From the NCBI GenBank assembly GCA_958295905.1, contig OY282382.1, forward strand, positions 4,582,910-4,646,909: 64,000 nucleotides of DNA, in the 5' to 3' direction. This DNA comes from an uncultured Vicinamibacterales bacterium. GTDB lineage: Bacteria; Acidobacteriota; Vicinamibacteria; Vicinamibacterales; UBA8438. The notes beneath the pieces are model-generated. The model was not told the DNA's origin, searched no databases, and worked only from the letters and a program-made list of their open reading frames with translations. The number at the start of each line of letters is the position of its first letter. The stretch's first letter is position 1. A program made the position numbers and the translations under genes. Below, piece by piece: positions 1,431 through 20,152 of this stretch.

Positions 1431-3865
1431 GTGGTATTCTGCGCCCAGATCAGTTCCTTGATGCGATTGGGACGGCCGAAGGGCTTCTCCTTCGAGTACT
1501 CGGCGACCTTCGGGCAGGCGGTCAAGGGCAACCCGGGCCTCGGCGACCTCTATGCCCGCGGCACCCTCTTCGACTACTCCTACCGCTGGTTCTACGGCGA
1601 CGGCTTCGGCAAGGACTACCGGATCCTGAACCTCGAAGACGACAGCAGCGCGGAATGGATGGCCAGCTACCTCACCGCCTGCCTGCTCGCCTTCTTCCAG
1701 CAGCAGCGGCTCTACCGCGAGCACGAGGCGGCGCTCCGTCCCTTCAACCTGGAGCGCCCGCTGTGGATCTTCGTCGGCGGCCGGGTCACGCTTGCGAAGC
1801 GCGACGCCTCGGACATCGTCGAGATCCTGCGCTTCCTGGCCGGCTACGTGTCGGACCGCGCCGGCAGCATCGCGCGCATCCGGGAGATCCTGACCCGCGG
1901 GCTCGTCTCCGCGTCCGGGGAGAACCTCTTTGCCGGGCGCTTCATCCATCTCGACACCAGCGGGCGGTCGCCCGAACAGGTGTTCGACGAGACCCTGGAG
2001 CTCCTCTTCAACGCGCCGCGCGGCGGTGCGCTGCACGTCGAGAACCTGAAGGGGGCCGCGGGGGAGGTGGCGTTGCGGGTGGGGGAAAACGAGCCCTTCG
2101 GGGTCATCAACGTCGGCGACGACGCCAAACTCGTGACCCTCTGCGAACGGGAAGGGTTCAACGTGGCCGAGCGGGAGTTCGCGGGCTCGCTCTTCCATGA
2201 TCTCGCCGCGCCCCGTTCGACCGTCAACGTGCTCATCGGCTCCCGGAAGTTCACCGAGGGGTGGAATAGCTGGCGCGTCGGCACCATGGGGCTGATGAAC
2301 GTCGGGCGCGGCGAGGGGGCGCAGATCATCCAGCTCTTCGGGCGCGGCGTGCGGCTCAAGGGCTGCGGAATGAGCCTCAAGCGCAGCGCGAGGGCGGAGC
2401 TCGCGGAGGGTCTGGAACGGCCGGACTCCATCGAATCCCTCGAAACGCTTCAGGTCTTCGGCATCCGCGCCAACTACATGGCCCAGTTCCGGGACTTTCT
2501 CGAAGAAGAGGGACTGCCCCCCGACGACGGACGGATCGAATTCCACCTGCCGATCGTCAAGAACCTCGGCACGCAGCCGCTCAAGACCATCCGGATCAGG
2601 AAGACCATCAACGGCGTCAGCACCGAGTCCGGCGACGCCTTCCGCAAGCTCGGACCCGTGCCGACCCTGCGGCCACCGGACGAAGCGCCGGCAGACGATG
2701 CGAGGGCGCAGGAAGCGGACTATCTCCAGCGGAATCAGGTGGCACTCAACTGGTATCCGAAGATCCAGGCCATGGATCCGGCGGCAGCAGCCGCCTCCGG
2801 CGAGGAGGGCGACGATGCCAGCGCGACGCCCGAACAGGCCCATCTGCAAGCGGCCCACCTCGCCTTTCTGGACATTGATGGCCTGTTCTTCGCGCTGGAG
2901 CGGTTCAAGGCGGAGCGAGGCTGGCACAACCTGAACCTGTCGCGCGCCGGCATCCGCGATCTCCTGGCCGACACCACTTGGTACCGCCTGCTCATCCCCG
3001 AATCCGCGCTCGCCGCCGACTCCATCGACAAGGTCCGCCTCTGGCAGGAGATCGCGCTTGCCCTGCTCAAGAAGTACACGGAGCGTTACTACACCTTCCG
3101 CAAGCGAGAGTGGGAGCTTCCGCACCTCGAATACCGGGCGCTGACCGGGGAGGACTCGATTTCCCCGGCGTGCGCGAGGAACGCGGTGAGTACGGGTACC
3201 GCGTCCTCGTCGAGAAATCGCGGCATGACGTCATGGCAAAGCTGGAGGAGCTGAAAGCGTCGATCAAGGGCGGCGCTCTGAGACCCTGGACCTTCCAGGG
3301 CATCAGCGCCGTCTGGTTCGACAAGCATCTGTACCAACCCTTGCTCGCCCTCGAAGGCGGGGTAGTGGAAATTTCGCCGGCGCCGCTCAACCGGGGCGAG
3401 CGCCGCTTCGTCGAGGACCTGAAGGCGTACTGCGACGGCAACGCCGCCGCCTTCGAGGGCAGGGAGCTCTACCTGTTGCGCAACCTGAGCCGGGGCCGCG
3501 GCATCGGCTTCTTCGAAGCGGGCAACTTCCACCCCGACTTCATTCTGTGGCTGCTCGCCGACGACCGGCAGCACGTCACCTTCGTCGACCCGAAGGGTAT
3601 CCGCAACGTCGGCGCGGACGATCCGAAGATCCGCTTCTTCGAGACCATCAAGGAGATCGAGCGGCGCCTCGGCGATCCGAAGGTCGCGCTGGATTCCTTC
3701 ATCGTGTCCAGTACGCCTTCACACGTGATGAAGAAGCTCTGGGGCATCGGCAAGCCCGAGATGGCGGCGCGGCACATCGCATTCCAGGAGGAAGACCGGG
3801 GTTCGTACATCGCTGCGATACTGCACGGCATCGGGGGCGAACGGGTCGCGAGGAGCGGGCGGTAA
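1431..3865 (+). pseudogene. SF2 (ResIII-type) helicase fused to a PD-(D/E)xK nuclease; 5'-truncated and frameshifted
   Basis: ORFs 1431-3254 and 2978-3865 are one gene in two frames, with the shift near 3150-3160. It carries helicase motif III (FEYSATF), helicase C-domain signatures ([24 protein letters not shown]) and a C-terminal PD-(D/E)xK-like core (FHPDFILWL...VTFVDPKG). The Walker A and DExH motifs are missing because the frame only opens at about 1431. The total length is not a multiple of 3. Confidence 0.7.
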
Positions 3866-3944
3866 TGGCGACGTACTCCGCACTGCACGGCATCGGAAAC
3901 GAACCGGTCGCGAGGGGTGGGCGGTAATGGCGGCGTACTCCGAT
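3821..3944 (+). repeat. 2 x 62-bp tandem duplication spanning a stop/start (TAATG) gene junction
   Basis: CTGCACGGCATCGG..GCGGTAATGGCG.CGTACTCCG occurs at 3821-3882 and again at 3883-3944, at roughly 85-90% identity by eye. Each copy contains a TAATG. The duplication creates a 20-codon mini-ORF at 3865-3927 (MATYSALHGIGNEPVARGGR). Confidence 0.85.
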
Positions 3945-5073
3945 GCCGAGCTCGAGGCGCTGATGTCGGATCTCGAATCCGATCTCGTGGAACGCAAGGA
4001 GTCGGCCGTTGACGGGACGAAGATCCGGCGCAACGTCTGCGCCTTCGCCAACGATCTGCCGGAAAACGGCAGGCCGGGGGTGGTGCTGGTCGGGGTACGG
4101 GACGACGCTTCCTGCGCCTCGTTGCCGATAGATGACGCCCTGTTGACGAGACTGGCAAACATCCACGGCGAAGGCGACATTCTGCCGCTGCCTTCGATGA
4201 CGGTACAAAAACGAGTGTTGAAGGGCTGCGAAGTCGCCGTCGTGTCCGTCGAGCCAGCGGCCGATACGCCCGTGCGTTACAAGGGCCGCGTCTGGGTCCG
4301 GGTCGGCCCGTCCGTTCGCGAAGGCTCCGTGGAAGACGAACGCCTGCTCACCGAACGCCGGCGCGCTGCCGACCTGCCCTTCGACTTGAGGGCGGTGGAC
4401 GCCGCGGGCCTGGATGACTTGGACCGAGACTTCGTGTGCGATTACTACCTGCCCAATGCGATCGCGCTCGAAGTGCTCGAACGGAACACTCGCCCACTTG
4501 AGCATCAGTTGCGTTCCCTGCGACTGGTTCAGGGAGAAAAGCCGACATGGGGTGCGGTTATTGCCTTCGGATTGGATCCGCAGGCATTCGTGCCCGGCGC
4601 TTACGTTCAATTCCTTCGTATCGACGGCACTGAAATTACCGATCCGATCCGGGATCAGAAGCAGCTCACCGGGCGACTGTACGACGTGGTTCGCCGGCTC
4701 GACGAGCTCCTCGACCTGAACGTTTCGGTTCGCACCCAGGTCGCGGGCGTGCCGCGGGAGAGACAGCGCCCCGACTACCCCGTCGATGCCTTGCGGCAAC
4801 TCGCGCACAACGCCGTCATGCACCGCAGCTACGAAGGAACCAACACCCCGGTACGGATACACTGGTTCTCCGACCGGATCGAGATTGCGAGCCCCGGCGG
4901 GTTGTACGGAAGGATCACGCGCGACAACTTCGGCACGGGAGACACCGTTCGCCCAACGCTTCGGCCTCGGCGTGCCGCTCGCTCGCAACGCCTTGGAAGC
5001 GAACGGCAATCCGGTGCCTGAATTCGGATTCGAACAGACTCTCGTCGTCGCCACGGTGAGGGCCGCACCGTGA
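3927..5073 (+). pseudogene. AlbA_2/Schlafen-type + HATPase_c_4-type putative DNA-binding ATPase ('RecG-like' regulator family), copy 1, internally deleted
   Basis: Motifs LESDLVERKES, VCAFANDL, GVVLVGV, LRQLAHNAVMHRSYE and IEIASPGGLYG are present. It is clearly paralogous to the intact gene at 13744-14955. Relative to that copy, about 50 nt are missing after ...DNFGTGDT (about 4945). This puts the conserved C-terminal tail (AQRFGLGVPLARNALEANGNPVPEF) into the frame that ends at 5073. The start ATG overlaps the upstream stop (TAATG). Confidence 0.7.
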
Positions 5074-6059
5074 AAAGTATCGCCGTGTTCAACAACAAGG
5101 GCGGCGTTGGAAAGACCTCCCTCGTCTACCATCTCGCCTGGATGTACGCGAGGCTCGACTTCAACGTCCTGGTGGCGGACCTCGACCCGCAGGCGAATCT
5201 CACCAGCATGTTCCTGAACGACGAGGAGCTTGAGGCTCTGTGGGAGGAAGATCGCGAGGATGGGACGATCTACACCTCTCTGCGACCGCTGCTGGAAGGC
5301 ACCGGAGACGTCACGACGCCGTATGTGACAGAGCCCGCGCCGGGTATCGGACTGGTAGCGGGCGACATGCTGCTTTCCGGGGCGGAAGACGAGCTGACGA
5401 GCCAATGGCCGGACTGCCTTGACCGAAAGCCCCGTGCATTCCGCGTGCTTTCAGCCATCTCGCGAGCCCTGCACGGGGCAGCGGAGAAGGTTGCCGCGGA
5501 CCTGATCCTGATGGACGTCGGCCCGAACCTCGGTGCGCTCAACCGGGCGGTGCTGGTCACCGCGGACCATGTCGTCGTACCGCTGGCGGCCGACCTCTAC
5601 TCCATTCGGGGCCTCTACAATCTCGGACCGACATTGCGCCGGTGGCGGCAGGAGTGGTCGGAGCGCCGGGAGCGCAACCCGGTGGCGGGTCTGGACGTGC
5701 CGCGCGGAGACATGGAGCCGATCGGGTACGTGGTGCTTCAACATGCGGTGCGGCTGAATCGTCCGGTCATGGCGTATGAACGCTGGATGGAACGCATACC
5801 GGGCGCGTACCGTGGTTTCGTGGTCGGCAAGGCCGCACGGCCCGCCCTTTCCATGGACGATGATAAGCACTGCCTGGCCACCCTCAGGCATTATCGAAGC
5901 CTAATGCCGCTCGCGCAGGAGGCGCGCAAACCGATGTTCGCCCTGAAGCCGGCGGACGGCGTCATCGGCAGCCAGGTCAATGCCGTGCGGGGGTGCTACC
6001 GCGACTTCCGGGCACTCGCCCACACCGTGGCCCAGCGATCCGGCGTGGCGACCGCCTGA
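5070..6059 (+). CDS. ParA/MinD-superfamily ATPase, copy 1
   Basis: It has the deviant Walker A (FNNKGGVGKTS), DLDPQANLT and LILMDVGPNLG. The GTG start overlaps the TGA of the upstream frame (GTGA). It is a paralogue of 12695-13744, including the unusual C-terminal region (HYRSLMPLAQEARKPMFALKPADG). Confidence 0.85.
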   Translation: MKSIAVFNNKGGVGKTSLVYHLAWMYARLDFNVLVADLDPQANLTSMFLNDEELEALWEEDREDGTIYTSLRPLLEGTGDVTTPYVTEPAPGIGLVAGDMLLSGAEDELTSQWPDCLDRKPRAFRVLSAISRALHGAAEKVAADLILMDVGPNLGALNRAVLVTADHVVVPLAADLYSIRGLYNLGPTLRRWRQEWSERRERNPVAGLDVPRGDMEPIGYVVLQHAVRLNRPVMAYERWMERIPGAYRGFVVGKAARPALSMDDDKHCLATLRHYRSLMPLAQEARKPMFALKPADGVIGSQVNAVRGCYRDFRALAHTVAQRSGVATA

Positions 6060-6492
6060 CGTTCTTCCGGGAGCGGCGGTGGCGCTGTCGGTCCTTCAAA
6101 GCGATTCGACGGTCACCGAGCCCCACCCGCAGCACCTCATCGGCCGGCGCAGGTTCGATCATCTGTTGCCGAACGCGTGAAAGCGATCGATTCGAGCCCG
6201 GTGCCGACCCCAAGATGTTGTGGTGGCCGGGGCATCGTCCGACCGACAGCTTCGGCGTGTGCTCGCCGCCGTCAAGGCGCGTCGCTTCGCTCCGCCCCCG
6301 CTTCGCGGGGCTCTCGGCTTGGACGGCGGCTCCGCGCACGCCTGTCCAGACCGGGCATTTGTCGGACGATGCCCAACCCGCTCCCCTACATCTTGTGGTC
6401 GACGACCTGTCCAGTTCGACGCACTTTCGGGCGACTGTTGACACTCACGCTCCGTTGTCTACCTCCAGACCTCGAGAGTCGCCCTCCAACCC

Positions 6493-6628
6493 CTAGCGGT
6501 CCGTCACATTATATTTTTCGGATAGACGGACTTGAGTTTGCAGCGCGCATCGTCGATCTTCATCTGCCAATCGACACCGCGCTGCGTGCCGTTGGTGTCG
6601 GTCGACCACGCCGACACTTTGCGTAATC
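6493..6628 (-). mobile_element. IS630/Tc1-family end remnant (a)
   Basis: CTAG is followed by CGGTCCGTCACATTATATTTTTCGGATAGACGGACTTGAGT. The minus-strand reading ends ...GVDWQMKIDDARCKLKSVYPKNIM*. As I recall it, this is the conserved extreme C-terminus of IS630-family transposases, with the stop codon inside the terminal repeat. Only about 135 bp survive, and the remnant abuts the truncated IS1182 copy. Confidence 0.5.
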
Positions 6629-7619
6629 CGGCGGATGAGACCGACGTGGCCGAGGACGTGCGGTTGGGTCCGGCGGTACGGGGCGACGAGTTGCCGGCGG
6701 AGTTGCGGCGGCGTGAGGATCGTTTGGCGGCGATCCGGGCGGCGCAGGCGCGTTTGGAGGCGGCGCAACGGGCTGCGGACGCCGCGCGCGGCCGGCAGCC
6801 GGGGCAGACCCGGAATCCGAAGGGGGGCCGGCCGTACAAGCGGGCGTACGGGGAGCCTGACGAGAAGTCGCAGAGCAACTTCACGGACCTGGAAAGCGGG
6901 ATCATGAAGACGGGCAACGAGGGCTTCCAGCAGTGCTACAACGCGCAGGCGGCGGTGGACGCCGAGCACCAGTTGTTGGTGGCGACGGATGTGACGGCGA
7001 ACGCGAGCGACCAGGGGGGGCTGCCGGTGTTGCTCGACCAAGTGCGGGAGACGTTCGAGACGCAGCCGGAGACGGTGCTGGCCGACGCGGGGTACTGCAA
7101 CGAGCGGGATTTGGCGGACCTGGAAACGCGGGGTGTTGACGGTTACGTGGCGGCGGGCCGGGAGGACAAGGGGGTCGCCGGCCGCGATCTGGAGAAACAT
7201 CCGGCGACGGGGCGGATGGTGGAGAAGCTGTCGACGCCGGCGGGGCGGGCGGTGTATGCGGAGCGGAAGTGGTTGTCGGAGGCGCCGTACGGCTGGGTCA
7301 AGCACGTGCTGGGCTTCCGGCGCTTCAGCCTGCGCGGCCTGGCGCAGGTGCGGGGCGAGTGGGACTTGGTGTGCCTGGCGGGTGAACGCCAAGCGTCTGC
7401 ACGCGCTGATGGCGGCGTAACAGGGCGGCTTTTCGGCTCTGCTGACCGGAATCGCAGTTGCGAATCGCGGCGTTTTGAGGGGTGTACGGCCTGTTTTCGG
7501 TTCGCGCCGCCGGCTGGTCGAAAATCACCTGCTCGTCGACCGCGGAAGACACCTTGACGGCGTGCGTCACGACGCAAGCCATCGGGGTTCCGCGAACTTC
7601 CTGCGGCGCAGACTCCTAG
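6629..7619 (+). mobile_element. IS1182-family element, 3' half only (transposase pseudogene)
   Basis: It is near-identical to the 3' ~990 bp of the complete copy at 41884-43470 (ADETDVAEDVRLGPAVRGDELPAELRRRE...VRGEWDLVCLA). It ends in the same terminal repeat CTGCGGCGCAGACTC+CTAG (7601-7619). The 5' half is absent, and one extra G near 7382 shifts the last ~12 codons. Confidence 0.85.
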
Positions 7620-7746
7620 TGGTCCGTCACGTCATAATTCTCGGATAGACGGACTTGAGTCGAATGATGCAATTCGCCTGCATGGGGAGACTCTTCTTGC
7701 TCCGAGGTGAGTTCCCGATGACCCAATATTTTCTCGTGACACCGCA
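7620..7746. mobile_element. IS630-derived MITE (b)
   Basis: A 127-bp element bounded by CTAG on both sides (7616-7619 and 7747-7750). This is consistent with the TA duplication within CTAG that is typical of IS630. The left end matches the IS630-type ends at 6497, 15013 and 44801. The right end is an imperfect inverted copy (15/25 matches). It has no ORF. Confidence 0.5.
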
Positions 7747-9591
7747 CTAGTCGATCTGGTACTCCGGCGTGCTCATGATGAGGTGCGTCACCATGCGCAG
7801 CGGGTCCTCCAGATAGGTCTCGGCGCGCGCGAGGTCCGCGGTGCCGAGCTCGCCGTCCAGTAGCGCCACCAGCGCGTCGCGCATGCCCGCCGACACCGGC
7901 ATCCGCAGGAAACGCGCCAGCAGGTAGTCGACCGCCTCGCCGGTGGTCGCCGCGCCGCTGTCCAGGACCATCCGGGTCATGTCCACCCGGGCCGCGCCGC
8001 GCGGGGTCGGAATCAGCTTCTGCATGGCCCGGGCCCACGCGAAGTAGCCGGAGACGCGGGTGTTGAACAGCTCGTCCCGCTCGAGCGCGGCGAGGTCGAA
8101 CGCGGTCATGTTGGCCGGGTCGTCGTCGAAGGCGATGGCGGCGCCGAAGTCGTAGCCCCGGCGCAGGCGGTCGCCCACGACCCCGTCCCCGCTGAGGGTG
8201 AGGAAATTCGGGTCGCGGAAGTTGACGATGTCGGGGAACAGGTAGTCGAAGGCGACGTTGCCCCGCTCCTGGAGGAGGGCGGGGGTGATCCACGCCCGGC
8301 CCTGCGCCCAGCCCGCGACCGACGGCGGGTTCAGCAGGTGCTGGCCCAGCGCAATCGCCGTGCTGTTGAAGTCGGGCACGCCGGGCACGTCCTCGGCCCC
8401 GAGGTGCTTCAGCATCGTGATGACGTGCTCGACCGGCCCCTTGATGTGGGCGCCGTAGCTCGCCTCGCTGTAGAAGTCGCGCGACAGGAAGATCGTCCGC
8501 ATGAGCGGCTTCAGCTCGTAGCCGTTGTCCCGGAAGACGGCGCCGAGCTCGGCCTGCAGGGCCGGCGACGGGTCCTCGCGGACGAAGAAGCGGTAGATCT
8601 TGGACGCAATGTACTCGGCGGTGACCGGCTGCTCGAGGATGATGCGGAGAACGTCCACGCCGTCGAAGTTGCCGGTGCGCCCCAGGAAGGTCTTCTCGTC
8701 GTCGTCGTGCTGACCGGCGTTGACCACGAAGTCGAGGTTCTCGAAGTTCCAGCCGGTGAAGGCCCGCGCCGCCTCGCGCACGTCCCGCTCGGTGTAGTTG
8801 CCCACCCCCATGGTGAACAGCTCCATCACCTCGCGGGCGAAGTTCTCGTTGGCCGCGCCCTTCACGTTCACCCCGGCATCGAGGTAGTAGAGCATCCCGG
8901 GATCCTGGGCCACCGCCACCAGCAGCTCGCCGAAGTTGCCGGTCGCGTGCCGCTCGAACGTCTCGATCTGCAGGAGCATCTTGCGGTAGTCGCGCACCTT
9001 GTTCTGGGCGGTGGCGAAATGGCCATGCCAGAACAGCGCCATCTTCTCTTCGAGCGGCCGGTGGGTGTCGAGCATCCGCTCGGCCCACCAGTAGCCGACC
9101 CGCCGGGTCTCCAGCCCGGTCGCCCGCAGCCAGTAGAAGAACCGATCGGAGAGCGGCTGTCCGTGCCGGTTGACGTGGTCGGGCTTGACCCGCACCCCCA
9201 TGCTCTCCCCGTTCCTCAGCCCCAGCTCGGTGGCGGCGGGCCGGCTCGGCGGAAAGTGCAGCAGCCCCTCGTCCCAGAAGCCGGAATGCTCGAACGGCGG
9301 AAGATGGCCGTTCGCGATGCCGTCGTAGTCCACGAGGGCGCGGACCGCCTCCTCGGGGGTCATCCCGGCCAGCTTCCGGACGTCGTCGGGCGCGCCGCTG
9401 AAGCCGGCGCGGCCCAGCAGGTGCTCGGCGCGGTCGTAGCTCCAGTCCGCGGCGGTGATCGGGGTCAGGTCCCCCCGCCAGGCGGCCGGTCCCGGCTCCC
9501 ACGTCTGCGAGCTCGCCGTCACGGCGCCGCCGGCGATGCACAGCGCCAGCGCGGCGCAGGCCGCCGCGGCGCGGTGGTATCGAGTCGTCAT
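7747..9591 (-). CDS. DUF1800-family protein
   Basis: A clean long ORF with family-typical stretches (FWHGHFAT, NENFAREVMELFTMG, FTGW, PPSVAGW). I moved the start to ATG 9591, which gives a signal-like N-terminus MTTRYHRAAAACAALALCIAGG. The upstream part of ORF 7747-9831 looks non-coding. Confidence 0.8.
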   Translation of the reverse strand: MTTRYHRAAAACAALALCIAGGAVTASSQTWEPGPAAWRGDLTPITAADWSYDRAEHLLGRAGFSGAPDDVRKLAGMTPEEAVRALVDYDGIANGHLPPFEHSGFWDEGLLHFPPSRPAATELGLRNGESMGVRVKPDHVNRHGQPLSDRFFYWLRATGLETRRVGYWWAERMLDTHRPLEEKMALFWHGHFATAQNKVRDYRKMLLQIETFERHATGNFGELLVAVAQDPGMLYYLDAGVNVKGAANENFAREVMELFTMGVGNYTERDVREAARAFTGWNFENLDFVVNAGQHDDDEKTFLGRTGNFDGVDVLRIILEQPVTAEYIASKIYRFFVREDPSPALQAELGAVFRDNGYELKPLMRTIFLSRDFYSEASYGAHIKGPVEHVITMLKHLGAEDVPGVPDFNSTAIALGQHLLNPPSVAGWAQGRAWITPALLQERGNVAFDYLFPDIVNFRDPNFLTLSGDGVVGDRLRRGYDFGAAIAFDDDPANMTAFDLAALERDELFNTRVSGYFAWARAMQKLIPTPRGAARVDMTRMVLDSGAATTGEAVDYLLARFLRMPVSAGMRDALVALLDGELGTADLARAETYLEDPLRMVTHLIMSTPEYQID

Positions 9592-9876
9592 GGGTCGTCC
9601 CCTCGTATCCAGGCCGGTCCCTTGATGCAGGGCCGCTCCGATTTCCAGAATCTCCATTGTGGACGGCCGGATGGCATTGTCAAGTCCGACGTGCTTTGTT
9701 GCGGTAAAATTGATGCCCGCGAGCGTTTCGCTCGACAGATGCGTCGCGGGCATGGCGGGCACGACGCCCACCGCCGCGGGCAGCGCGCTCTTCCGCACGG
9801 CCGCCGTGAGGCGGTACGGCCGATCCGCCACGGATTCGGCAGGAAGACCGTGGGTGCTCGAACCGTGATCCCGCGA

Positions 9877-9929
9877 TCCCCGATTCGAGGGGGCGGGCCG
9901 TCACGCGCAGTCAGCGTGGGATGCCCCTG
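9877..9929 (-). repeat. family-1 MITE end fragment (copy B, rearranged)
   Basis: The sequence ...CCCCGATTCGAGGGGGCGGGCCGTCACGCGCAGTCAGCGTGGGATGCCCCTG matches one MITE terminus. The internal CCCC-GATTCGA-GGGG hairpin is in the flipped orientation relative to the other copies. Confidence 0.5.
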
Positions 9930-10006
9930 CGCGGCGACCCGGGCACGGCCCGGCACGGCCCCGCCCGCGGGCCTCGATGTGAGATGATGGGCTGCTGGAT
10001 TCAGAG

Positions 10007-11143
10007 ATGACGAAGCCGACAATCGTGCTACTGGCGGCGGGCCTGACGCTGGGCGGCCTCTCCACGGCGCACGCCCAAAGCGGCGGCCCCTCCACGGCGC
10101 ACGCCCAAAGCGGCGGCCCCGGCGCGTGGGACCCGGACGCCGCCGCCGCCTATCTCGACCAGCGGGTGGACTGGTGGTCGGGCTGGGAGACGGCGGCGCG
10201 GGAGCGCGGCACGTTCTGCGTCTCCTGTCACACCACCGCCCCGTACGGCCTCGCCCGCCCGATGCTGCGGCCCGCGGGCGGCGCGGGCGCGGCATCACGG
10301 TACGAGCGCAAGCTGCTGGACAGCGTCACGACCCGCGTCGCCGGCTGGACCGAGGTCGGCCCGTTCTACCCCGACGAGCGCTACGGCGCGCCCAAGACCA
10401 GCCAGTCGCGCGGGACGGAAGCGATACTCAACGCCCTCGTCCTCGCCCGGCACGACGAGCGGAACGGCGTGCTGAGCGACCGCACGCGCCGGGCGTTCGA
10501 CAACCTCTGGGCGCTGCAACGCACGGACGGCGCCGACGCGGGCGCGTGGCCCTGGCTGCACTTCAACCTGGCGCCGTGGGAATCGGACGAGGGGCCGTAC
10601 CACGGGGCGGCGCTGGCCGCCGTCGCCGTCGGACTCGCGCCGGACGGCTACCGCGCCCGCGCCGAGATTCGGGACAACGTCGCGCGGCTCGGCGGCTATC
10701 TTCGGCGCCGGCTCGACGCCCAGCCGCCTTTCAACCGCGTCATGGCCCTCTGGGCCTCCGGCGCGCTTCCGGATCTGCTGACGGGCGCGCGGCGGCAGGC
10801 GATCGTCGACGAGATCGCCGACCTGCAGCGGAAGGACGGCGGCTGGAGCCTGTCGTCACTGGGCGCCTGGACCCGGCGGGACGGGACCCCCGCCGAGACG
10901 GGGAGCGACGGTTACGCGACCGGTCTGGTCACGCTCGCGCTCCGGCGGGCCGGCCTGCCGCGGGATCACGAGGCGGTCGCGGGCGGCCTCGACTGGCTCG
11001 TCCTGAACCAGGACCCCGACGGGTCGTGGCCCGCGTCGTCGCTCAACCGCGGGCGCGATCCGGCGTCGGACCGGGGGCGCTTCATGCGGGACGCCGCCAC
11101 CGCCTACGCGGTGCTGGCGCTGGCGGCGGACGACGGGCGCTGA
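10007..11143 (+). CDS. secreted prenyltransferase/squalene-cyclase-like alpha/alpha-repeat protein with an N-terminal CXXCH motif
   Basis: It has a signal peptide, FCVSCH, and then repeats typical of the terpenoid-cyclase/prenyltransferase fold (QRTDGADAGAWPW, QRKDGGWS, NQDPDGSWP). Confidence 0.65.
   Translation: MTKPTIVLLAAGLTLGGLSTAHAQSGGPSTAHAQSGGPGAWDPDAAAAYLDQRVDWWSGWETAARERGTFCVSCHTTAPYGLARPMLRPAGGAGAASRYERKLLDSVTTRVAGWTEVGPFYPDERYGAPKTSQSRGTEAILNALVLARHDERNGVLSDRTRRAFDNLWALQRTDGADAGAWPWLHFNLAPWESDEGPYHGAALAAVAVGLAPDGYRARAEIRDNVARLGGYLRRRLDAQPPFNRVMALWASGALPDLLTGARRQAIVDEIADLQRKDGGWSLSSLGAWTRRDGTPAETGSDGYATGLVTLALRRAGLPRDHEAVAGGLDWLVLNQDPDGSWPASSLNRGRDPASDRGRFMRDAATAYAVLALAADDGR
10061..10120 (+). 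repeat. perfect 2 x 30-bp in-frame tandem duplication inside the signal-peptide region
   Basis: TCCACGGCGCACGCCCAAAGCGGCGGCCCC is repeated exactly (10061-10090 and 10091-10120). This duplicates the peptide STAHAQSGGP, which includes the probable AHA-Q signal-peptidase site. Confidence 0.9.
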
Positions 11144-11255
11144 TCGGACCGGCGGACCGTGCCCCGGCGGGTCCGCCCGCCGCGTCCGGGCGCGTTCCGT
11201 GTCGAGGTCGAGACGTTGCAGTCCGGGACACGTGCGCACAGGAAGGGACCTTCAG

Positions 11256-12332
11256 ATGACGTATCGAGCAGGCATGCGGACGGCGTTGGCGGTGGTCGCG
11301 GCGGCGATCGTCTCGGCGGCTGCGCCGGCGCCGGCGCAGCCGGTCACCGGGCCGACCAACGAGCACCCCAACCCCTTCGAGACGATAAACGACCACTTCA
11401 AGCTGCCCGAGGGACGCACTTGGGGCTCGACCAGCGCCGTGGACATCGATCCCGACGGGACGTCGATCTGGGTCGGCGAGCGTTGCGGGGCGAACAGTTG
11501 CGCGGAATCGGACCTCGATCCGGTCCTCCAGTTCGACAGGGACGGCAACCTGCTGAAAAGCTTCGGCGGCGGCATGTTCATCTTCCCGCACGGCATCCAC
11601 GTCGACGGCCGCGGCAACGTGTGGGTCACCGACGCCCAGGGCCCGCGGGGACGCGGTCCCGCCTACGAGGGCAAGGGCCACGCCGTCTTCAAGTTCAACC
11701 CGGACGGCGAGCTGCTGATGACCCTGGGCCGCCCCGGCACCGCCGGCGACGGGTCGGGGCCGCTCCTCAACGAGCCGAACGACGTGCACGTCGCCCCCAA
11801 CGGCGACATCTTCGTCGCCGAGGGCCACAGCGGCCAGGGCGCGGGGGCGAGCTGGGACACCGTCGCCCGCGTCGTCAAGTTCGACCGCCAGGGCAACTTC
11901 ATCAAGTCGTGGGGCGGCATCGGGACCGCCCCCGGGCAGTTCCGGACGCCGCACGGCCTCGCCATGGACTCGCGCGGCCGCCTCTTCGTCGCCGACCGCG
12001 GCAACGTGCGCATCCAGATCTTCGACCAGGACGGCAACTTCATCGACCAGTGGAAGCAGTTCAGCCGCCTCAGCGGGATCTACATCGACGCCGACGACAA
12101 CATCTACGGCGCCGACTCCGAGTCGAGCCCCACGTCGAACCCGGGCTGGCGCCGGGGCATCCGCATCGGCAGCGCGGTGACCGGCCACGTCCGGTTCTTC
12201 ATCCCCGACCCCGCCGACGTGCCGCGGGGAACCACCGCGGCCGAGGGCGTGGCGGTCGACGCCGAGGGCAACGTCTATGGCGCCGAGGTCGGCCCGCGGC
12301 AGCTCGTCAAGTACGTCCGGCGCGGGCAGTAG
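11256..12332 (+). CDS. secreted NHL-repeat beta-propeller protein
   Basis: GGAAGGGA lies upstream of ATG 11256, followed by a signal peptide (MTYRAGMRTALAVVAAAIVSAAAPAPAQ). NHL-like blades recur (FIFPHGIHVDGRGNVWVTD, PNDVHVAPNGDIFVAE, FRTPHGLAMDSRGRLFVADRGNVRIQIFD). Confidence 0.8.
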   Translation: MTYRAGMRTALAVVAAAIVSAAAPAPAQPVTGPTNEHPNPFETINDHFKLPEGRTWGSTSAVDIDPDGTSIWVGERCGANSCAESDLDPVLQFDRDGNLLKSFGGGMFIFPHGIHVDGRGNVWVTDAQGPRGRGPAYEGKGHAVFKFNPDGELLMTLGRPGTAGDGSGPLLNEPNDVHVAPNGDIFVAEGHSGQGAGASWDTVARVVKFDRQGNFIKSWGGIGTAPGQFRTPHGLAMDSRGRLFVADRGNVRIQIFDQDGNFIDQWKQFSRLSGIYIDADDNIYGADSESSPTSNPGWRRGIRIGSAVTGHVRFFIPDPADVPRGTTAAEGVAVDAEGNVYGAEVGPRQLVKYVRRGQ

Positions 12333-12341
12333 TCGATTACG

Positions 12342-12380
12342 CCGGGTTCCGGAGGGCGCAAACGCCCTTCCGGGACCCGG
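12342..12380 (+). terminator. GC-rich hairpin downstream of the NHL gene (possible terminator; no U-tract)
   Basis: CCGGGTTCCGGAGGGCG-CAAA-CGCCCTTCCGGGACCCGG forms a ~17-bp stem with one wobble and one bulge, starting 10 nt after the stop codon. Confidence 0.3.
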
Positions 12381-12486
12381 CTCAACCACTTCGGCGTTCA
12401 CGTCGCTCTTCAACCGTGGCGAATACGGTAGAGCCGGGTGAGCCCGCCCGTTCGCGCAGGGCCTGACGGCCCATGGTGAAGTCCCT

Positions 12487-12698
12487 GCCGCATCCGGGCG
12501 GCGGGGCATCCCGCCTGACGCCCGCACGACGCCTTCCCACCTGGCGACGGGTGCCGCCCGTTCCCGATGACGGCGACGCAGGCATCCACTATGCCGCATC
12601 CGGGCAGCGGCGCATCCCGCCTGACGCCCGCACGACGCCTTCCCGCGTGGCGACGGGCGCCGCCCGTTCCCGATGACGGCGGCGCCGGCGTCCGCTAC
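12487..12698. repeat. 2 x 106-bp tandem repeat
   Basis: The unit GCCGCATCCGGGC.GCGG.GCATCCCGCCTGACGCCCGCACGACGCCTTCCC...CCGTTCCCGATGACGGCG starts at 12487 and again at 12593. It contains GGCATCCCGCCTGAC, which resembles the family-1 MITE terminus GGCATCCCACGCTGAC. Confidence 0.8.
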
Positions 12699-13744
12699 AC
12701 CGGTCCCGCTGGCGGCGCGGCGGACCGCGGCCGTTCCGCCGCGGCCGACGCGGCGTGCGTCCGTTGCAGCAGGTTCTCGACGAGCGCTCTGAAGTCGTGG
12801 AACGCGCCGCGGGCGGCGACGGCATGACTCCCGAGGGCGCCGTCTCCTGCGGACAGGGAAAAGATCGGCTTGCGCGCGTCCTGCGCCAGCGGAACGAGGC
12901 TGCGGTAGTGCTTCACGGTGGCGATGCAATGCTCGTCGGCTTGCGGATCCAACGCAGTTGCAGGAGTCTCTTCGCCCAGCACGCTGCGCGAGTACTCGGC
13001 CGGCATCTGCCTTGCCCACCGGTCGTAGGCCTTGACGGGACGGCTCAGTCGGACGCCGTGCTGCTGAATCAGGTAACCGATTGGCCGCATGTCACCGGTC
13101 GGCAGGTCGAAATCGGGCTCGGCCCAATTGCCGCGGCGCTTCTTCCAGTCGTCCCGCCAGCGGCGGAGGGTCGGACCCAGGTTGCGCAGCCCCTGCCGGG
13201 AGAACAGGTCGGCGGCCAGCGGCACCGCGACGAAGTCGGTGGCAATCAGGGCGGAACGGTTGATGGCCCCCAGGCTCGGGCCGACGTCGACCAGCACGAT
13301 GTCTGCGCCTGACTGCCCGGCGCCCTTTTGCACGACCTGCCAGAACGCGGTGATCACACGAAACGCGCGGTACAGGTTGGTGCTTCCCAGGCAGTTCGGC
13401 CATTCCGTGGACAGCAGGTCCTCGAAGCCCGACAACGCCAGATCGCCGGGCAGCAGGTAGAGCCCGTCCGCGGGTCGCTGCAACTCGGGGTCTCCGACGT
13501 CCCCGACCTTGGTGAGCGGCGCCACGCACTGGTGGATCGTCCTGCCCGACGAAGACGCCTGGTCGTTCCAGAGGTCGGCGAGCGTATCCTCGTCCAGAAA
13601 CGCCGCCGTGAGGTTGGCCTGGGGATCGAGATCGACGACCAGCACCGTATGGTCCAGCGCCGACAACATCCAGGCCGCGTGGTAGACCAGGGAGGTCTTT
13701 CCCACGCCACCTTTGTTGTTGAAGAACGTCAGGACGGGCGTCAT
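12695..13744 (-). CDS. ParA/MinD-superfamily ATPase, copy 2
   Basis: Motifs are MTPVLTFFNNKGGVGKTSLVYH, DLDPQANLT and IVLVDVGPSLG, and the C-terminal region is shared with copy 1 (HYRSLVPLAQDARKPIFSLSAGDG). The ATG at 13744 overlaps the upstream stop (TGATG). The longer 501-aa ORF in the track is an artefactual N-terminal extension. Confidence 0.85.
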   Translation of the reverse strand: MTPVLTFFNNKGGVGKTSLVYHAAWMLSALDHTVLVVDLDPQANLTAAFLDEDTLADLWNDQASSSGRTIHQCVAPLTKVGDVGDPELQRPADGLYLLPGDLALSGFEDLLSTEWPNCLGSTNLYRAFRVITAFWQVVQKGAGQSGADIVLVDVGPSLGAINRSALIATDFVAVPLAADLFSRQGLRNLGPTLRRWRDDWKKRRGNWAEPDFDLPTGDMRPIGYLIQQHGVRLSRPVKAYDRWARQMPAEYSRSVLGEETPATALDPQADEHCIATVKHYRSLVPLAQDARKPIFSLSAGDGALGSHAVAARGAFHDFRALVENLLQRTHAASAAAERPRSAAPPAGPV

Positions 13745-14955
13745 CACGCGCGGACCCTCACCGTGCAGTGAACCCAGTTCGGCTCGACGCGGAAGTCGGG
13801 TTCCGGTTGCCCATTGTTCAGCAGGGCGCGTCGCGCCGTCGGAATTCCCGCGCCGTAGCGTTGAGCCAGTCCGAGAACCCGCATCGCTTCCGCCAGAATC
13901 TGGTTGCGATAGTCCACGATGCCCGGCTGCCCGAAGTTCTCGGTGGTAAGGGCGCCGTAGGGGCCGCCCGGACTCGTGATCTCGACACGATCGTCGAACC
14001 AGTAGACATGGATCGGCGCATTCGTGCCTTCGTAGGTCCTGTGCATGACGGCGTTGCGAACGAGTTGCTGAAGCGCCGCCATGGGATACGTCGGCGTCCG
14101 CACTTCGACCGGACCCGACGTGAAGTCGACCGCGGTCCGATTGTGCGCCAGCAGCTTGTCGTCGAGACCGAGAACCAGGTGGGCAATCGGGCCGCTGCAT
14201 CGCCCGTCGTCGACCACGGGGTCGGCGAGATCCGTGCCGGCGATACGCAGAAACTGCACGAAGGCGGCCGGCAGGAAGTCCTGCGGGTTCTTGCCCAGGA
14301 CGAGAATGCCGGCGATCGTCGGCCTCGGGTCATCGACCGCGGCGATCATCTTGAGGGCCGCGAGACGCTGCTCCGTGCTCCGATCGTTCTCCGCAAGGGC
14401 CGTCGCGTCGACCGCCAGCGGGAGGTAATCCTCCTCGAAACGCCGCAAATCGAGATCGGCGACACTGGCGGTGGGCACCGGTTGCGCATCGAAGTGGGGG
14501 TCGCGATGCCGCCGCTTCTCGTTCAGAATCCGTTCGTCCTGGGCGCCGGCGACGGCCCGCCTCGGCCCCACGCGGATCCAGATCCGTCCCCGGTGGCGCA
14601 CCGGCGGCGTGTCCGACGGCACGACGGTAACGACCGCAACGGGAGTCCCGAGCAGCACGCGCCGGTCGACGGTCAGCGTCGGCGGCGGCACGATGTTGCC
14701 GTCCGTCTTCACGTCGGCGAGCTGCAACAGCATTTCGTCCGTGATCTCGAGGCCGACGGGCGCGCCGGCGTCGTCCGCTCCCACAAACACGACGCCGGGG
14801 CGCTGGTGGTCCGGCAGATCGTTGGCGAAGGCGCAGACCGCTTGCCGGATCTTGCGGGGACTGTCTCCCCGCAGCGATTCCTTCCGCTCGACCAAGTCCG
14901 ACTCCAGGTCCACCAGCATCGCTTCAAGCTCGTGCTGTGTATACGGCGCAGTCAC
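13744..14955 (-). CDS. AlbA_2/Schlafen-type + HATPase_c_4-type putative DNA-binding ATPase, copy 2 (intact)
   Basis: Motifs are LESDLVERKES, VCAFANDLPDH, GVVFVGADD, LQQLVRNAVMHRTYE, VEITSPGGPYG and the C-terminal tail AQRYGAGIPTARRALLNNGQPEPDF. It is full length (403 aa). Confidence 0.8.
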   Translation of the reverse strand: MTAPYTQHELEAMLVDLESDLVERKESLRGDSPRKIRQAVCAFANDLPDHQRPGVVFVGADDAGAPVGLEITDEMLLQLADVKTDGNIVPPPTLTVDRRVLLGTPVAVVTVVPSDTPPVRHRGRIWIRVGPRRAVAGAQDERILNEKRRHRDPHFDAQPVPTASVADLDLRRFEEDYLPLAVDATALAENDRSTEQRLAALKMIAAVDDPRPTIAGILVLGKNPQDFLPAAFVQFLRIAGTDLADPVVDDGRCSGPIAHLVLGLDDKLLAHNRTAVDFTSGPVEVRTPTYPMAALQQLVRNAVMHRTYEGTNAPIHVYWFDDRVEITSPGGPYGALTTENFGQPGIVDYRNQILAEAMRVLGLAQRYGAGIPTARRALLNNGQPEPDFRVEPNWVHCTVRVRA

Positions 14956-15012
14956 TCGATCGCCTCCGCGCGTTGAATCGCATCCCTCCGGTGCCTCCGG
15001 TGCCTACATTCC

Positions 15013-15065
15013 TGGTGGCCTGTCACGCCATAAGTTTCGGACAGACGGACTTGAGTCGAACGACG
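15013..15065 (-). repeat. IS630-family end remnant (c)
   Basis: TGGTGGCCTGTCACGCCATAAGTTTCGGACAGACGGACTTGAGTCGAACGACG is the same end as at 6497, 7620 and 44801. The minus-strand reading is ...VVRLKSVCPKLMA*. It lies in the 175-bp spacer between the Toprim-like gene and the AlbA_2 gene. Confidence 0.5.
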
Positions 15066-15130
15066 TATTCCATTCAACGATCGGCAAAATGGCCCTGACG
15101 ATCAAGTGGGACAGGCTGTCACGGTCGAGC

Positions 15131-15763
15131 TCAGGTTCTTGCCTCCACTGGAATGCCAAGTTGATCGAGAGCTGTCGTCGTGTCTGCCTCGAGCCGGGCG
15201 AATGCCGGCAAAGTTCGCAAAGCAGTCCAATCGCCGATCAGGTTCGCCAAGCGATGAGCGGCGCGGCCGGGTTTGAAGCTCTTCGCTCGTCTTCCTTTCG
15301 CTCCGTTGGCGGCACGCAGCGCATCGTGGAGGATTTTCTTGGGATCCGCCAACTTTTCCCATCGATGCGCCGGCGGCAACCCGAGGTTCTCCGTTCCAGA
15401 CGGCCGACCAGCCGCTTCACGAAGAGCAGACTCGTCGTGCAGAAGCCACGCCTCCTGCATTTTCACCGGTACGACGCAAACATGACTGAGGCCTGTACGA
15501 TTGGCGGCCCCGATCTCCTCATATCGAACACATGGGTCTTGTCTCTCCGCGTCTCGATGCACGAAGAGAAGCTGACACGGATACTCCTGAATCGCAACGG
15601 CGAGTCTCTCGGCCAGATCGCGGGGCCTGTCGCGAAGCACTCTGAGGTCTGCCCATTGGATTTCGAACGCTTGCGGCGTCAATCGGCTCATCAGCCACTG
15701 AAGAATCGGCATCAGCACGACATCCGACGCGCCATCGGTCACGAGTGTCACCCGTAGTGTCAT
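15131..15763 (-). CDS. Toprim-like predicted nuclease (DUF4276-like) partner of the upstream ABC ATPase
   Basis: MTLRVTLVTDGASD, LLFVHRDAE and VVPVKMQEAWLLHD give an acidic-residue pattern that fits a Toprim-like fold. As far as I can judge without HMMs it fits DUF4276. The ATG overlaps the ATPase stop (ATGA). G+C is visibly lower than in the surrounding DNA. Confidence 0.55.
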   Translation of the reverse strand: MTLRVTLVTDGASDVVLMPILQWLMSRLTPQAFEIQWADLRVLRDRPRDLAERLAVAIQEYPCQLLFVHRDAERQDPCVRYEEIGAANRTGLSHVCVVPVKMQEAWLLHDESALREAAGRPSGTENLGLPPAHRWEKLADPKKILHDALRAANGAKGRRAKSFKPGRAAHRLANLIGDWTALRTLPAFARLEADTTTALDQLGIPVEART

Positions 15764-17262
15764 TTTCCGGACCCGGTCGCCGAAGGCGGGAGCGGTAGCC
15801 CGGGTTGTTGCATGTCTTCCCGATGCATGACTCTCGTAGCGCCGACATGCGGCGCGGCGCCATCAACGTCGATGGCCTGCAGGGGGTTCAGGTAGGCCAA
15901 CAGGTCTCCCCGCGCAACCGTAGGCTCGTCAGAACTCTCTTCATGCCGCCACGTGCCCGGCAGGTGACGAATGGAGAGCCGTGACACCGCTGATTCCCCA
16001 CCGCGGCCGGCATGCGCCACGAGCAGCGCATCGTCATGAACGCACGCCACGACGGACGGCGAGTGCGTGTTGATGATGACCTGTCGAAGCGGGTTGTCGG
16101 CATCGACCGGTTCCGCAGCGTCCACGGCAAGCTCACCCAGCAGTTCAATCACGGCCGAGATTCGGAGCGGATGCATCCCGTTCTCGGGTTCTTCCAGGCA
16201 CAGAAGCCGCCTGCTCCCGGGATCGGATTCCATGACGGTGAGGGCGAGAAACCGCAGTGTGCCGTCGGACAACGCGCCCGCGACGTGCTCGGTGTCCTGG
16301 AGGTCCGTCATCACGATACTCAGAAGCTGTCGCTTGTCGTCTACGTCCACGGTAATCCCGCGCACGTTCTCGACCAGTTCGGAGAGCTTGTTCGCGACGC
16401 GGGCATAGACGTCCCGCTCTCCGCCGGGGTGATCCCGCTGCGCCGCCTGCGCAAGGTCGTGCAGCGTTGCGGGCAGGTGAGCGCCGCTCGGTCCCATGCT
16501 GCGCGGCGCCGTGAAGGCGTCCGGCACCCGCAGCGCCGAGGGCTCGAGCTGGAGTTGCGTCCATCGCGCCATTTCTTGACGGGCCAGCACCAACGTTCGG
16601 TGCTCGGCGGCATTGTTGACCGACGACAACATGGTGCGCGGCAGGTTCGCGGCGGAAACACGACGTGGGCGGCCGCCGCCCAGACCCGCCACGCTGTCTG
16701 CGTGCAGTGACACGACGGGTCCGCCTTCACCCTCGTTCTCCGTCGAAATATAGGGACTGGTGCGACGCCCCTTGACGACGGAGTCCCGCCACGGTTTCTT
16801 GTGCGGAAAACCGAGCCGATTCTTCGCCTCGGACCGGTTGATATGCACCAATCTCTCACGGACGATCTCCAGCCCGCCGATCGTTCTGATGGTGGGGTCC
16901 TGGCGATAGCGCAGCTCCAGCTCGTACTGGAGAAACGTCATCGATGCCTTGGCCGCCTGACCCAGTTCGTCTTCACCTTCCTCGGGAATCAGGAACTCGG
17001 CCGCGAACGTCATCTTGTCGGCGACGTGGTCGCCGTTGCGACGGAAGAGGCTCCACACATCACCTCGTCGAGAGTCCCCGCCCCGAACGGTTGACGCTGC
17101 TTCCACCAGCGGTTTGTCCGCCAACGCCGCGAGAAAGGAGATCGCGTCGAACAAATTGGACTTTCCGACGCCGTTGGGTCCGGCAATGCACGTGAAGGGG
17201 CCCAGCCGAACATCGATCCGGTCGAGATTCTTGAACCCGTCCACCTTGAGGCGCGTGAGCAC
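15760..17262 (-). CDS. ABC/SMC-type ATPase (AAA_15/AAA_21-like, as in OLD and PARIS AriA)
   Basis: LKVDGFKNLDRIDVRLGPFTCIAGPNGVGKSNLFDAISFL gives the N-terminal Walker A, and LLCLEEPENGMHP gives the Walker B/D-loop. I set the start at GTG 17262, just before the conserved N-terminus. The 75 codons further upstream in the ORF look non-coding. Confidence 0.8.
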   Translation of the reverse strand: MLTRLKVDGFKNLDRIDVRLGPFTCIAGPNGVGKSNLFDAISFLAALADKPLVEAASTVRGGDSRRGDVWSLFRRNGDHVADKMTFAAEFLIPEEGEDELGQAAKASMTFLQYELELRYRQDPTIRTIGGLEIVRERLVHINRSEAKNRLGFPHKKPWRDSVVKGRRTSPYISTENEGEGGPVVSLHADSVAGLGGGRPRRVSAANLPRTMLSSVNNAAEHRTLVLARQEMARWTQLQLEPSALRVPDAFTAPRSMGPSGAHLPATLHDLAQAAQRDHPGGERDVYARVANKLSELVENVRGITVDVDDKRQLLSIVMTDLQDTEHVAGALSDGTLRFLALTVMESDPGSRRLLCLEEPENGMHPLRISAVIELLGELAVDAAEPVDADNPLRQVIINTHSPSVVACVHDDALLVAHAGRGGESAVSRLSIRHLPGTWRHEESSDEPTVARGDLLAYLNPLQAIDVDGAAPHVGATRVMHREDMQQPGLPLPPSATGSGK

Positions 17263-20102: not shown

Positions 20103-20152
20103 TGTTGTCGAGCGCCTGAAAGTGATCATTTCTGCACCGCCATCGACTGTGC

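Follow-up and report, generated by a model that had tools for sequence, protein, structure and literature searches.

A Schlafen-GHKL and ParA-like ATPase gene pair as a probable two-gene conflict module in an uncultured Vicinamibacterales bacterium

The window analyzed here, a 64,000-nucleotide (nt) stretch of contig OY282382.1 (positions 4,582,910 to 4,646,909) from an uncultured Vicinamibacterales bacterium, has a G+C content of ~70% and contains two copies, in opposite orientation, of a gene pair encoding a Schlafen-GHKL protein (A) and a ParA-like ATPase (B). The two pairs, copy 1 (A1 and B1) and copy 2 (A2 and B2), are composed as follows, with positions given in window coordinates.

13744..14955, minus strand: A2, intact, 403 amino acids (aa); Schlafen (AlbA_2) and GHKL (HATPase_c_4) domains and a C-terminal winged helix-turn-helix (wHTH); ESDLVERK (Ex4ExK); predicted RNase effector.
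12695..13744, minus strand: B2, intact, 349 aa; ATPase of the ParA/Soj fold, DIP2308-like subfamily; KGGVGKT, DLDPQ, Walker B Asp and a C-terminal motif at residues 280-305.
3927..5073, plus strand: A1, pseudogene paralogue of A2; N-terminal Ex4ExK kept; annotated open reading frame (ORF) stops at 5021.
5071-5073, plus strand: TGA stop codon of the ancestral A1 frame, the frame downstream of a 44-nt deletion.
5070..6059, plus strand: B1, intact, 329 aa; paralogue of B2; canonical Walker A.

An initial annotation of this DNA had described two diverged paralogous gene pairs (3927-6059 on the plus strand, 14955-12695 on the minus strand), one of them decaying, and both points hold. In protein comparison A1 and A2 are 46% identical and B1 and B2 51% identical, and because of these low identities the two copies appear to derive from an old duplication or a second acquisition. 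They are separated by genes for a DUF1800 protein, a squalene-cyclase-like protein and an NHL-repeat protein. The alignment of A1 to its nearest relatives breaks at 4946 and resumes one base on in another frame, revealing a 44-nt deletion at ~4946/4947 that removes 15 codons, including those of the conserved DYRN motif, and shifts the frame; A1 is therefore a pseudogene. Copy 1 is thus a wreck, with a dead effector gene and an ATPase gene that is still open, while copy 2 is probably functional. The nearest loci elsewhere are in metagenome-assembled genomes (MAGs) of Vicinamibacterales (Acidobacteriota), with 82-90% aa identity to B2.

The upstream gene had been called AlbA_2/HATPase_c_4-like, and a Pfam profile search of A1 and A2 confirmed this. 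SLFN_AlbA_2 (PF04326) matched A2 (4.1e-13) and A1 (8.7e-12), both above the gathering score, and HATPase_c_4 (PF13749, GHKL) matched A2 (3.7e-19) over profile positions 2-87 of 89; in A1 the latter match is cut to positions 2-33, owing to the 44-nt deletion. Both proteins contain ESDLVERK, a sequence that conforms to Ex4(E/D)xK, the catalytic motif of Schlafen tRNases. Among 76 members of the A family, conservation is 90% or higher at E18, S19, E23 and R24, and the GHKL N-box and G-box motifs NAxxHRxY, DRxEIxxPGGxxG and NFG..DYRN are conserved as well. No HEPN family was found in A by Pfam, and the R300-x4-H305 string of A falls inside the GHKL N-box helix. The best structural match of the AlphaFold2 (AF2) model of A2 (predicted local distance difference test score, pLDDT, 86) in a Foldseek search is 3LMM, followed by the SAMD9 tRNase domain, SLFN11/12/14 and the CA domains of histidine kinases. 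A is a member of the pSlfn-HisKinase-HTH (helix-turn-helix) or 'Schlatpase' class described previously (10.1101/2025.07.24.666596; 10.64898/2026.05.29.728809); pSlfn proteins protect via tRNA cleavage (10.1101/2025.07.24.666596).

The downstream gene was correctly called a ParA/MinD-type ATPase: B1 (5070-6059) and B2 (12695-13744) match AAA_31/CbiA in Pfam and carry a KGGVGKT deviant Walker A motif, DLDPQ (Walker A' DxD) and the Walker B residue D153. The AF2 model of B2 (pLDDT 94.3, predicted template modeling score, pTM, 0.92) finds 3PG5 (DIP2308) as its top Foldseek match and then Soj/ParA at E 1e-12 to 1e-13, and the B-family profile matches 3PG5 at E=5.8e-54 over its full length, including the C-terminal region. 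Relatives of B2 number more than 8000, many of them ~70% identical across phyla; the full-length family (E <= 1e-30) forms 479 clusters at 50% identity, of which 97 representatives were aligned. Its most conserved parts are D38/D40, D153 and the C-terminal R-K-P-x-F-x-L-x-x-A-D-G-x-x-G (P293 and L297 invariant; K292, F295, D301, G302 and G305 at least 90% conserved), not the P-loop, so the conserved C-terminal extension noticed in the initial annotation is real and is the most conserved region of the family. We use it to define a DIP2308-like ParA subfamily, proteins of ~330-350 aa in which the ParA core is followed by a C-terminal S-L-x-P-x-x-Q-(4)-P-[IV]-F-x-[LC]-(3)-D-G-x-x-G. The motif was found in B1, B2, the 97 representatives, 3PG5 and SIR2_2-paired, RES-fused, phage and plasmid members, and it is present in distant members (23-38% identity) regardless of partner. 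KGGxGK[ST], by comparison, is retained in only 32 of the 97 representatives, with T, R or Q often replacing the P-loop Lys, and a canonical Walker A is present in 110 of 125 loci close to B2. Membership of B in the PADLOC family PDC-M28B was rejected, as this match, the only one that PADLOC v2 gave for B, covers only ~40 residues around the P-loop, and NCBIfam partition models score B far under their cut-offs (60 bits vs 180).

A and B form a conserved unit. Adjacency was counted by tblastn rather than from called genes, because GC3-based calling (G+C at third codon positions) misplaced genes of low-GC islands (HEC-01B, introduced below, was put on the wrong strand), and loci were scanned with a 14-sequence alignment since the 97-sequence alignment was too diverse. 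A lies directly upstream of B in 77 of 80 metagenome loci (B 47-84% identical to B2), and two of the three exceptions show remnants of A. Thirty of a set of 32 genome loci, from Acidobacteriota, Spirochaetia, Actinomycetes and Burkholderiales, were testable; A is directly upstream in 26, and the remaining four keep short remnants of its 3' end. Further homologues of B2 bear Planctomycetota and Gemmatimonadota (Ca. Palauibacter) names, and in the genomes of Planctomycetota and Palauibacter A is again directly upstream. With adjacency in 77 of 80 other loci, chance is ruled out as the source of the pairing, in agreement with the co-occurrence that had been proposed. The proposed translational coupling stands: the A2 stop and B2 start codons share one base (TGATG), and A and B stop and start codons overlap in other loci with called genes, but the GTGA overlap of copy 1 is present only in the frame reached past the deletion in the dead A1. 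Pairwise identities of A and of B are correlated (r=0.87, Mantel p=0.001, 66 pairs), which shows that the two proteins co-evolve, and natural A-B fusion proteins exist (P0144, 731 aa; P0262, 690 aa).

The two genes do not decay alike. Among 92 loci that were judged for both genes, both are intact in 73, A is damaged or absent and B intact in 17, A is intact and B damaged in one, and both are damaged in one; copy 1 of the window is one further case of a dead A beside an intact B. Several of the A lesions remove specifically the Schlafen domain, and after the loss of A, substitutions in the Walker A motif of B are seen in L031/L033/L034, L072 and L116. The dN/dS of B is 0.31-0.38 without A vs 0.10-0.28 otherwise, still below 1. 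Because A was lost with B kept in 17 loci and the reverse occurred in one, we read A as a toxic effector that B regulates: the asymmetry fits a costly or toxic A that the cell can do without and a B that cannot be lost first. These data make it probable that the two genes form an autonomous conflict module, of the abortive-infection or toxin-regulator type, with A as the effector under the control of B.

A mechanism consistent with this reading can be outlined; the RNase activity of A, its contact with B, the direction of regulation, the trigger and an anti-phage phenotype are all elements that we infer. The Schlafen domain of A, with the Ex4ExK motif of eukaryotic and prokaryotic Schlafen tRNases, would be the catalytic part, the GHKL ATP-binding domain would probably drive oligomerization into the active nuclease, by analogy with SLFN-pAgo, and the wHTH would add nucleic-acid binding. 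The motif, the fold and the published work on SLFN-pAgo and pSlfn proteins are the reasons for picturing A as an ATP-assembled Schlafen RNase. B would be an ATP switch of the ParA/Soj fold, made in fixed proportion to A via the overlapping stop and start codons, and would most likely keep A inactive until an infection cue alters its nucleotide-bound or DNA-bound state; foreign DNA or protein, nucleoid damage and nucleotide depletion are candidate cues. Once released, A would cut tRNA or other RNA and thereby arrest growth. We picture B as an inhibitor that is released on infection because of the decay asymmetry and because RNase toxin plus ParA/Soj ATPase dyads, with the ATPase as postulated antitoxin, were predicted in silico as toxin-antitoxin (TA) systems by Anantharaman et al. 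2013 (PMC3710099).

Several points weigh against this interpretation. The pTM of the A2 model is only 0.61, and the HisKinase-type pSlfn proteins that were tested were not reported to protect. About two-thirds of the 50%-identity B cluster representatives have no canonical Walker A, and for that reason the B family may be able to do without ATP hydrolysis; the degenerate P-loops reflect either the decay of many lineages or a role of the family that is independent of ATP hydrolysis. The 17-to-1 asymmetry was counted without regard to phylogeny (L031, L033 and L034 are probably one event), and misassembly of long-read MAGs may account for some of the 'damaged' calls. Purifying selection on B persists where A is missing (dN/dS ~0.3), so B may serve a purpose independent of A. 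Recognized defense genes adjoin only about a quarter to a third of the loci, several loci lie among housekeeping genes, and the pair holds a conserved chromosomal site in Vicinamibacterales (described below), because of which it looks more like a vertically inherited locus than a mobile defense island. Finally, neither PADLOC v2 nor the searchable literature yielded a name, a model or an experiment for the pair of Schlafen-GHKL and ParA.

The surroundings of the two copies contain the following genes and repeats.

1431..3865, plus strand: H1, type III-like restriction enzyme remnant split between two frames (1431-3254 and 2978/3233-3865); neighbor, outside the cassette.
3820..3942, plus strand: junction duplication, a 62-nt tandem repeat of the H1 stop/A1 start region with TAATG twice; 20-codon chimeric mini-ORF at 3865-3927.
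6532..7557, plus strand: DDE_Tnp_1 transposase fragment, directly 3' of B1.
12486..12697, no strand assigned: two tandem 106-nt repeats, 92-94% identical, starting exactly at the B2 stop codon.
15010..15063, no strand assigned: 54-nt repeat resembling the end of an insertion sequence (IS), within the 175 nt that separate HEC-01B from A2; further copies at 6491-6544, 7614-7667 and 44763-44807.
15131..15763, minus strand: HEC-01B, TOPRIM-like partner of HEC-01A.
15760..17262, minus strand: HEC-01A, ABC-type ATPase (Pfam AAA_21/AAA_15); candidate defense neighbor, outside the cassette.

Copy 1 had been described as coupled by TAATG to a gene for an SF2 helicase/nuclease. The TAATG exists and the gene is type III restriction enzyme-like, but it is a remnant and its junction with A1 is duplicated. 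H1 matches PADLOC REase_III over positions 376-1121 of 1154 (1.7e-113 and 5.8e-30), lacks approximately the first 375 residues and is frameshifted over two frames; it has no Pfam match, and with no methyltransferase gene adjacent and the enzyme not full-length, we do not count it as a type III restriction-modification (RM) system. Comparison of H1 with the Hma/BREX-related helicase that precedes A-B in L001 revealed no similarity, and a degraded Hma locus is therefore not demonstrated for copy 1. The ABC ATPase and Toprim-like pair reported 175 bp upstream of copy 2 was identified by PADLOC as HEC-01A (3e-98) and HEC-01B (2.8e-28); the two genes overlap by 4 nt, end 175 nt upstream of A2 and are not embedded in Hma. 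HEC-01, a PADLOC candidate system, is reported to have given no protection in tests (Payne 2024).

Neither a HEC-01 gene nor a REase_III-like gene was found beside A-B among ~190 other loci, where housekeeping neighbors are common, and the suggestion that these were swappable NTPase-nuclease modules of one system does not survive as a statement about functional partners. Because the neighbors vary and HEC-01 and the restriction enzyme gene recur in no other locus, the A-B cassette appears to be autonomous and its neighbors in the window incidental. The swappable element is instead the effector paired with the ParA-like protein (Schlafen-GHKL, SIR2_2 or a RES fusion), not the upstream NTPase-nuclease.

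The immediate upstream neighbors of the pair in other loci include SNF2-NOV_C helicases (3/34) and a few methylases or PglX-like proteins, and the downstream ones DUF1156 methylases (5/31) and other methylases; the rest are housekeeping genes. PADLOC matches among 129 neighbors of 16 loci were to mad3, PglX, BrxC, BrxL, PglZ, HmaA and DrmD, most neighbors having none, and on three long contigs A-B stands alone amid housekeeping genes. The pair is also seen beside RM systems, and some metagenome loci have it among BREX/Hma core genes. Such arrangements, which include the order PglX-A-B-PglZ in Burkholderiales (L048/L050) and SNF2 helicase-A-B-DUF1156 in L001, would be expected if A-B were an accessory subunit of methylation-based systems such as BREX and Hma, or, for the two copies here, of the adjacent HEC-01 and type III-like genes, and A-type proteins have been described as backup effectors embedded within BREX and BREX-related loci, closely linked to their cores in at least 1017 taxa (PMC12839542). 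Most of the sampled loci, however, have no such core next to the pair, no BREX/Hma core gene was found flanking either copy among the window genes by Pfam and PADLOC, HEC-01 and the restriction enzyme gene are never its neighbors elsewhere, and an IS-end remnant lies between HEC-01 and A2. We therefore consider dependence on any of these systems very improbable, and continue to favor an autonomous module.

In syntenic Vicinamibacterales genomes, the copy 2 site has the order PQQ dehydrogenase, HicA toxin gene and partner, A-B, NHL, DUF1800; in the window HEC-01 stands in place of the HicA pair, the PQQ dehydrogenase gene lies beyond HEC-01, and IS21-like genes follow it. On the copy 1 side, the transposase fragment at 6532-7557 occupies the slot that gene cluster c7 holds beside the DUF1800 gene in syntenic genomes. 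Residence at a conserved chromosomal site amid housekeeping genes, here and in other genomes, could mean that A-B is a housekeeping or regulatory pair in which A, which ends in a wHTH, is the adaptor for a ParA-type ATPase that positions or segregates DNA or cargo, and B does have the ParA fold and a deviant Walker A, with Soj/ParA as its nearest characterized structures. Yet no ParB-like gene was found beside the pair and the family is very rare on plasmids; the patchy distribution, with ~70% identity across phyla, implies horizontal transfer; A is frequently inactivated while its catalytic nuclease residues are conserved; and B-like proteins pair with SIR2_2 NADase and RES toxin domains. A housekeeping role is, in our estimate, extremely improbable.

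The IS-rich character of the region, noted in the initial annotation, was confirmed: in addition to the DDE_Tnp_1 fragment at 6532-7557, a second, stop-interrupted copy of this transposase lies at 41970-42887 on the minus strand (89% aa identity), and at 20153-22504, also on the minus strand, one long IS21-like ORF with Mu-transposase C-terminal and IstB_IS21 domains coincides with a GC-skew spike. Copies of the 54-nt IS-end-like repeat flank the transposase fragment 6532-7557, and the copy at 15010-15063 appears to mark a rearrangement joint. No other copy of the 106-nt repeats was found in the window or in related loci. A separate interspersed repeat of ~165 nt has at least eight copies in the 64 kb (582-744, 9889-9926, 19943-20109 on the minus strand, 35224-35389, 35407-35574, 46219-46388 and 46403-46570 on the minus strand, and 53216-53293), which are 87-92% identical and include two tandem pairs; its ends are complementary over ~10 nt, its predicted fold is strong (-77 kcal/mol) and there is little variation between copies. 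It looks like a miniature inverted-repeat transposable element or a REP-like element, and a search of window positions 1-22000 against Rfam gave no match.

An IS-rich location, an asymmetric decay in which the toxin is lost and the 'antitoxin' kept, and a HicA toxin gene with its partner in the neighboring slot of syntenic genomes are also what a plain TA or addiction module would show, one that serves to stabilize itself or the DNA beside it and plays no part in immunity; the 2013 prediction cast such dyads in those terms (PMC3710099). Against this stand the repeated occurrence of the cassette inside BREX/Hma operons and beside RM systems, the phage defense provided by Schlafen proteins of other architectures (10.1101/2025.07.24.666596; PMC13552941) and the presence of B-like genes in prophage immunity-region slots. 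Since many TA modules act in defense as well, the two readings overlap, and we regard addiction without immunity as quite unlikely.

Beyond A-B, the DIP2308-like ATPases have other companions. In L142 (5122-6995), L146 (8001-9865) and L197 (8001-9889), distant B-like genes are followed immediately by genes for defense-type SIR2_2 proteins that resemble the ThsA, LmuA and Dsr effectors, with a 4-nt overlap in L142; two of these three loci come from predicted viral contigs. The ATPase subfamily seems here to form part of another two-gene arrangement, likewise unnamed. A SIR2 gene next to B in Vicinamibacterales loci L011-L020 was rejected as an effector; it encodes a canonical sirtuin (PF02146) followed by MutM, and from its sequence motifs we read it as CobB-like and housekeeping. 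At the second Vicinamibacterales site (L011), A-B, the sirtuin and MutM genes are followed by one for a longer HATPase_c_4+DuOB protein, an arrangement that recalls the Fpg/MutM gene between those for DIP2308 and DIP2311. In P0196 (545 aa), a RES toxin domain is joined to the C terminus of a B-like protein whose Walker A is degenerate (GAVGTT). In C. epidermidicanis (L196; CP011541.1, 4988-9056), an MmeI-type RM system, a GmrSD_N protein and a DIP2308-like gene share an island; the DIP2308-like gene comes directly after an unannotated gene (332 aa) that matches GIY-YIG weakly and may be another effector partner. Other distant B-like genes stand alone in defense-rich plasmid regions.

Salmonella phage ST160 (L054; NC_014900.1, 11482-13035) carries a B-like gene, orf23, annotated as a 'ParA-like partition protein', together with orf24 directly 3' of the c2 repressor gene, in the immunity-region slot of P22-like phages; the orf24 product is a DUF3024 protein that matches the PADLOC candidate PDC-S43 at 2.2e-41. 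The position of orf23/orf24 corresponds to that of rexAB in lambda, which by analogy suggests a prophage-encoded exclusion function rather than partition for the B-like gene.

The range of these companions is one reason to ask whether B activates rather than restrains A. In such a scheme B, as ATP-bound dimers on DNA, would sense a phage protein or the DNA of an invader and then turn A on, the part played by the NTPase of other NTPase-nuclease defense systems. Pairing with unrelated effectors (Schlafen-GHKL, SIR2_2, RES) is the usual pattern of a shared sensor, the C-terminal motif is conserved whatever the partner, and solo B-like genes occur in defense-rich plasmid regions and phage accessory-gene slots. 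If B were an activator, however, its loss should be as harmless as that of A, yet A was lost 17 times for each loss of B, and the sole published prediction for such dyads gives the ATPase an antitoxin-like role (PMC3710099). An activating B is thus unlikely in our view, and we retain B as a probable negative regulator of A. A broader possibility, doubtful at present, is that DIP2308-like ParA proteins constitute an unrecognized and widespread class of immune switch, nucleoid-binding ATPases with the hallmark motif that would gate interchangeable effectors (Schlafen-GHKL RNase, SIR2_2 NADase, RES and possibly PDC-S43) and sense the state of DNA or partition-type machinery; they would form a new modular defense family in bacteria, plasmids and prophages.

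A-B matches no PADLOC v2 system and no name for the pair was found, which agrees with the initial annotation insofar as it recognized no named defense system; the parts have precedents, as A falls in the published Schlatpase class and an RNase plus ParA/Soj dyad was predicted in 2013 (PMC3710099). The closest relatives on the effector side are pSlfn-HisKinase-HTH/Schlatpase, SLFN-pAgo and Cash, which resemble A1 and A2 in the AlbA_2 domain with PF13749 GHKL (and HTH), in Ex4(E/D)xK and in BREX/Hma contexts; pSlfn and SLFN-pAgo also provide the mechanistic template, ATP-driven oligomerization followed by tRNA cleavage. Published pSlfn proteins are single-gene effectors or sensor fusions (Ig-like, DUF262, pAgo, Csx15), whereas A has a ParA-like partner gene. 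The searchable literature on prokaryotic Schlafens does not mention an obligate ParA-like partner of Schlafen-GHKL proteins, and the searchable literature reports no test of a HisKinase-type pSlfn together with a ParA partner. Schlafen-GHKL is the commonest prokaryotic Schlafen architecture, and no phenotype has been reported from tests of this class by itself; should a large clade of these proteins function only alongside a co-translated ParA-like ATPase, the negative single-gene tests would be explained.

The dyads of a HEPN protein (MAE_18760) and ParA/Soj are similar in being two-gene combinations of an RNase toxin and a ParA/Soj-like ATPase as proposed antitoxin or regulator, and some MAE_18760 HEPN proteins are fused to Schlafen (PMC3710099). 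The A effector is a Schlafen-GHKL protein in which Pfam detects no HEPN domain, and for this reason we place A-B outside these dyads, which are likewise a prediction only. Type I partition systems (ParABS, with Soj, ParA, SopA and ParF) share with B the fold, deviant Walker A, DxD and Walker B, but A-B has a nuclease-type upstream partner, and B has an extra C-terminal region with the subfamily motif. No ParB-like gene was found beside either window copy or in related loci (no search for parS was made), the partition-model scores are under their cut-offs, and relatives of B are nearly absent from plasmids (23 of 72,556, all below 36% identity, with no ParB next to them in three loci inspected); on these grounds A-B is not a ParABS system, and the initial annotation was right to set plasmid partitioning aside.

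The best structural matches of B2 and A2, DIP2308 (3PG5) and DIP2311 (3LMM) of Corynebacterium diphtheriae, are uncharacterized structural-genomics targets with ~20-28% identity. They were considered and rejected as operon evidence: the two genes are ~7 kb apart in C. diphtheriae (L194), with housekeeping genes, including Fpg/MutM, between them. If our reading of A-B is true, these orphan structures would gain a role, and the occurrence of the same ATPase subfamily beside SIR2_2 and RES toxins suggests that a broader modular family exists.

In general logic, A-B resembles NTPase-effector defense pairs such as HEC-01, PARIS, Gabija and SIR2-HerA, in which an NTPase controls a toxic effector and effectors are swappable. 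It differs from all of them in the nature of the NTPase, which is of the SIMIBI-class ParA type and not ABC, AAA+/HerA or STAND. Should the proposed control of A by B be true, the few NTPase classes that gate immune effectors would be joined by the SIMIBI/ParA type, with 12695-14955 as a concrete two-gene unit.

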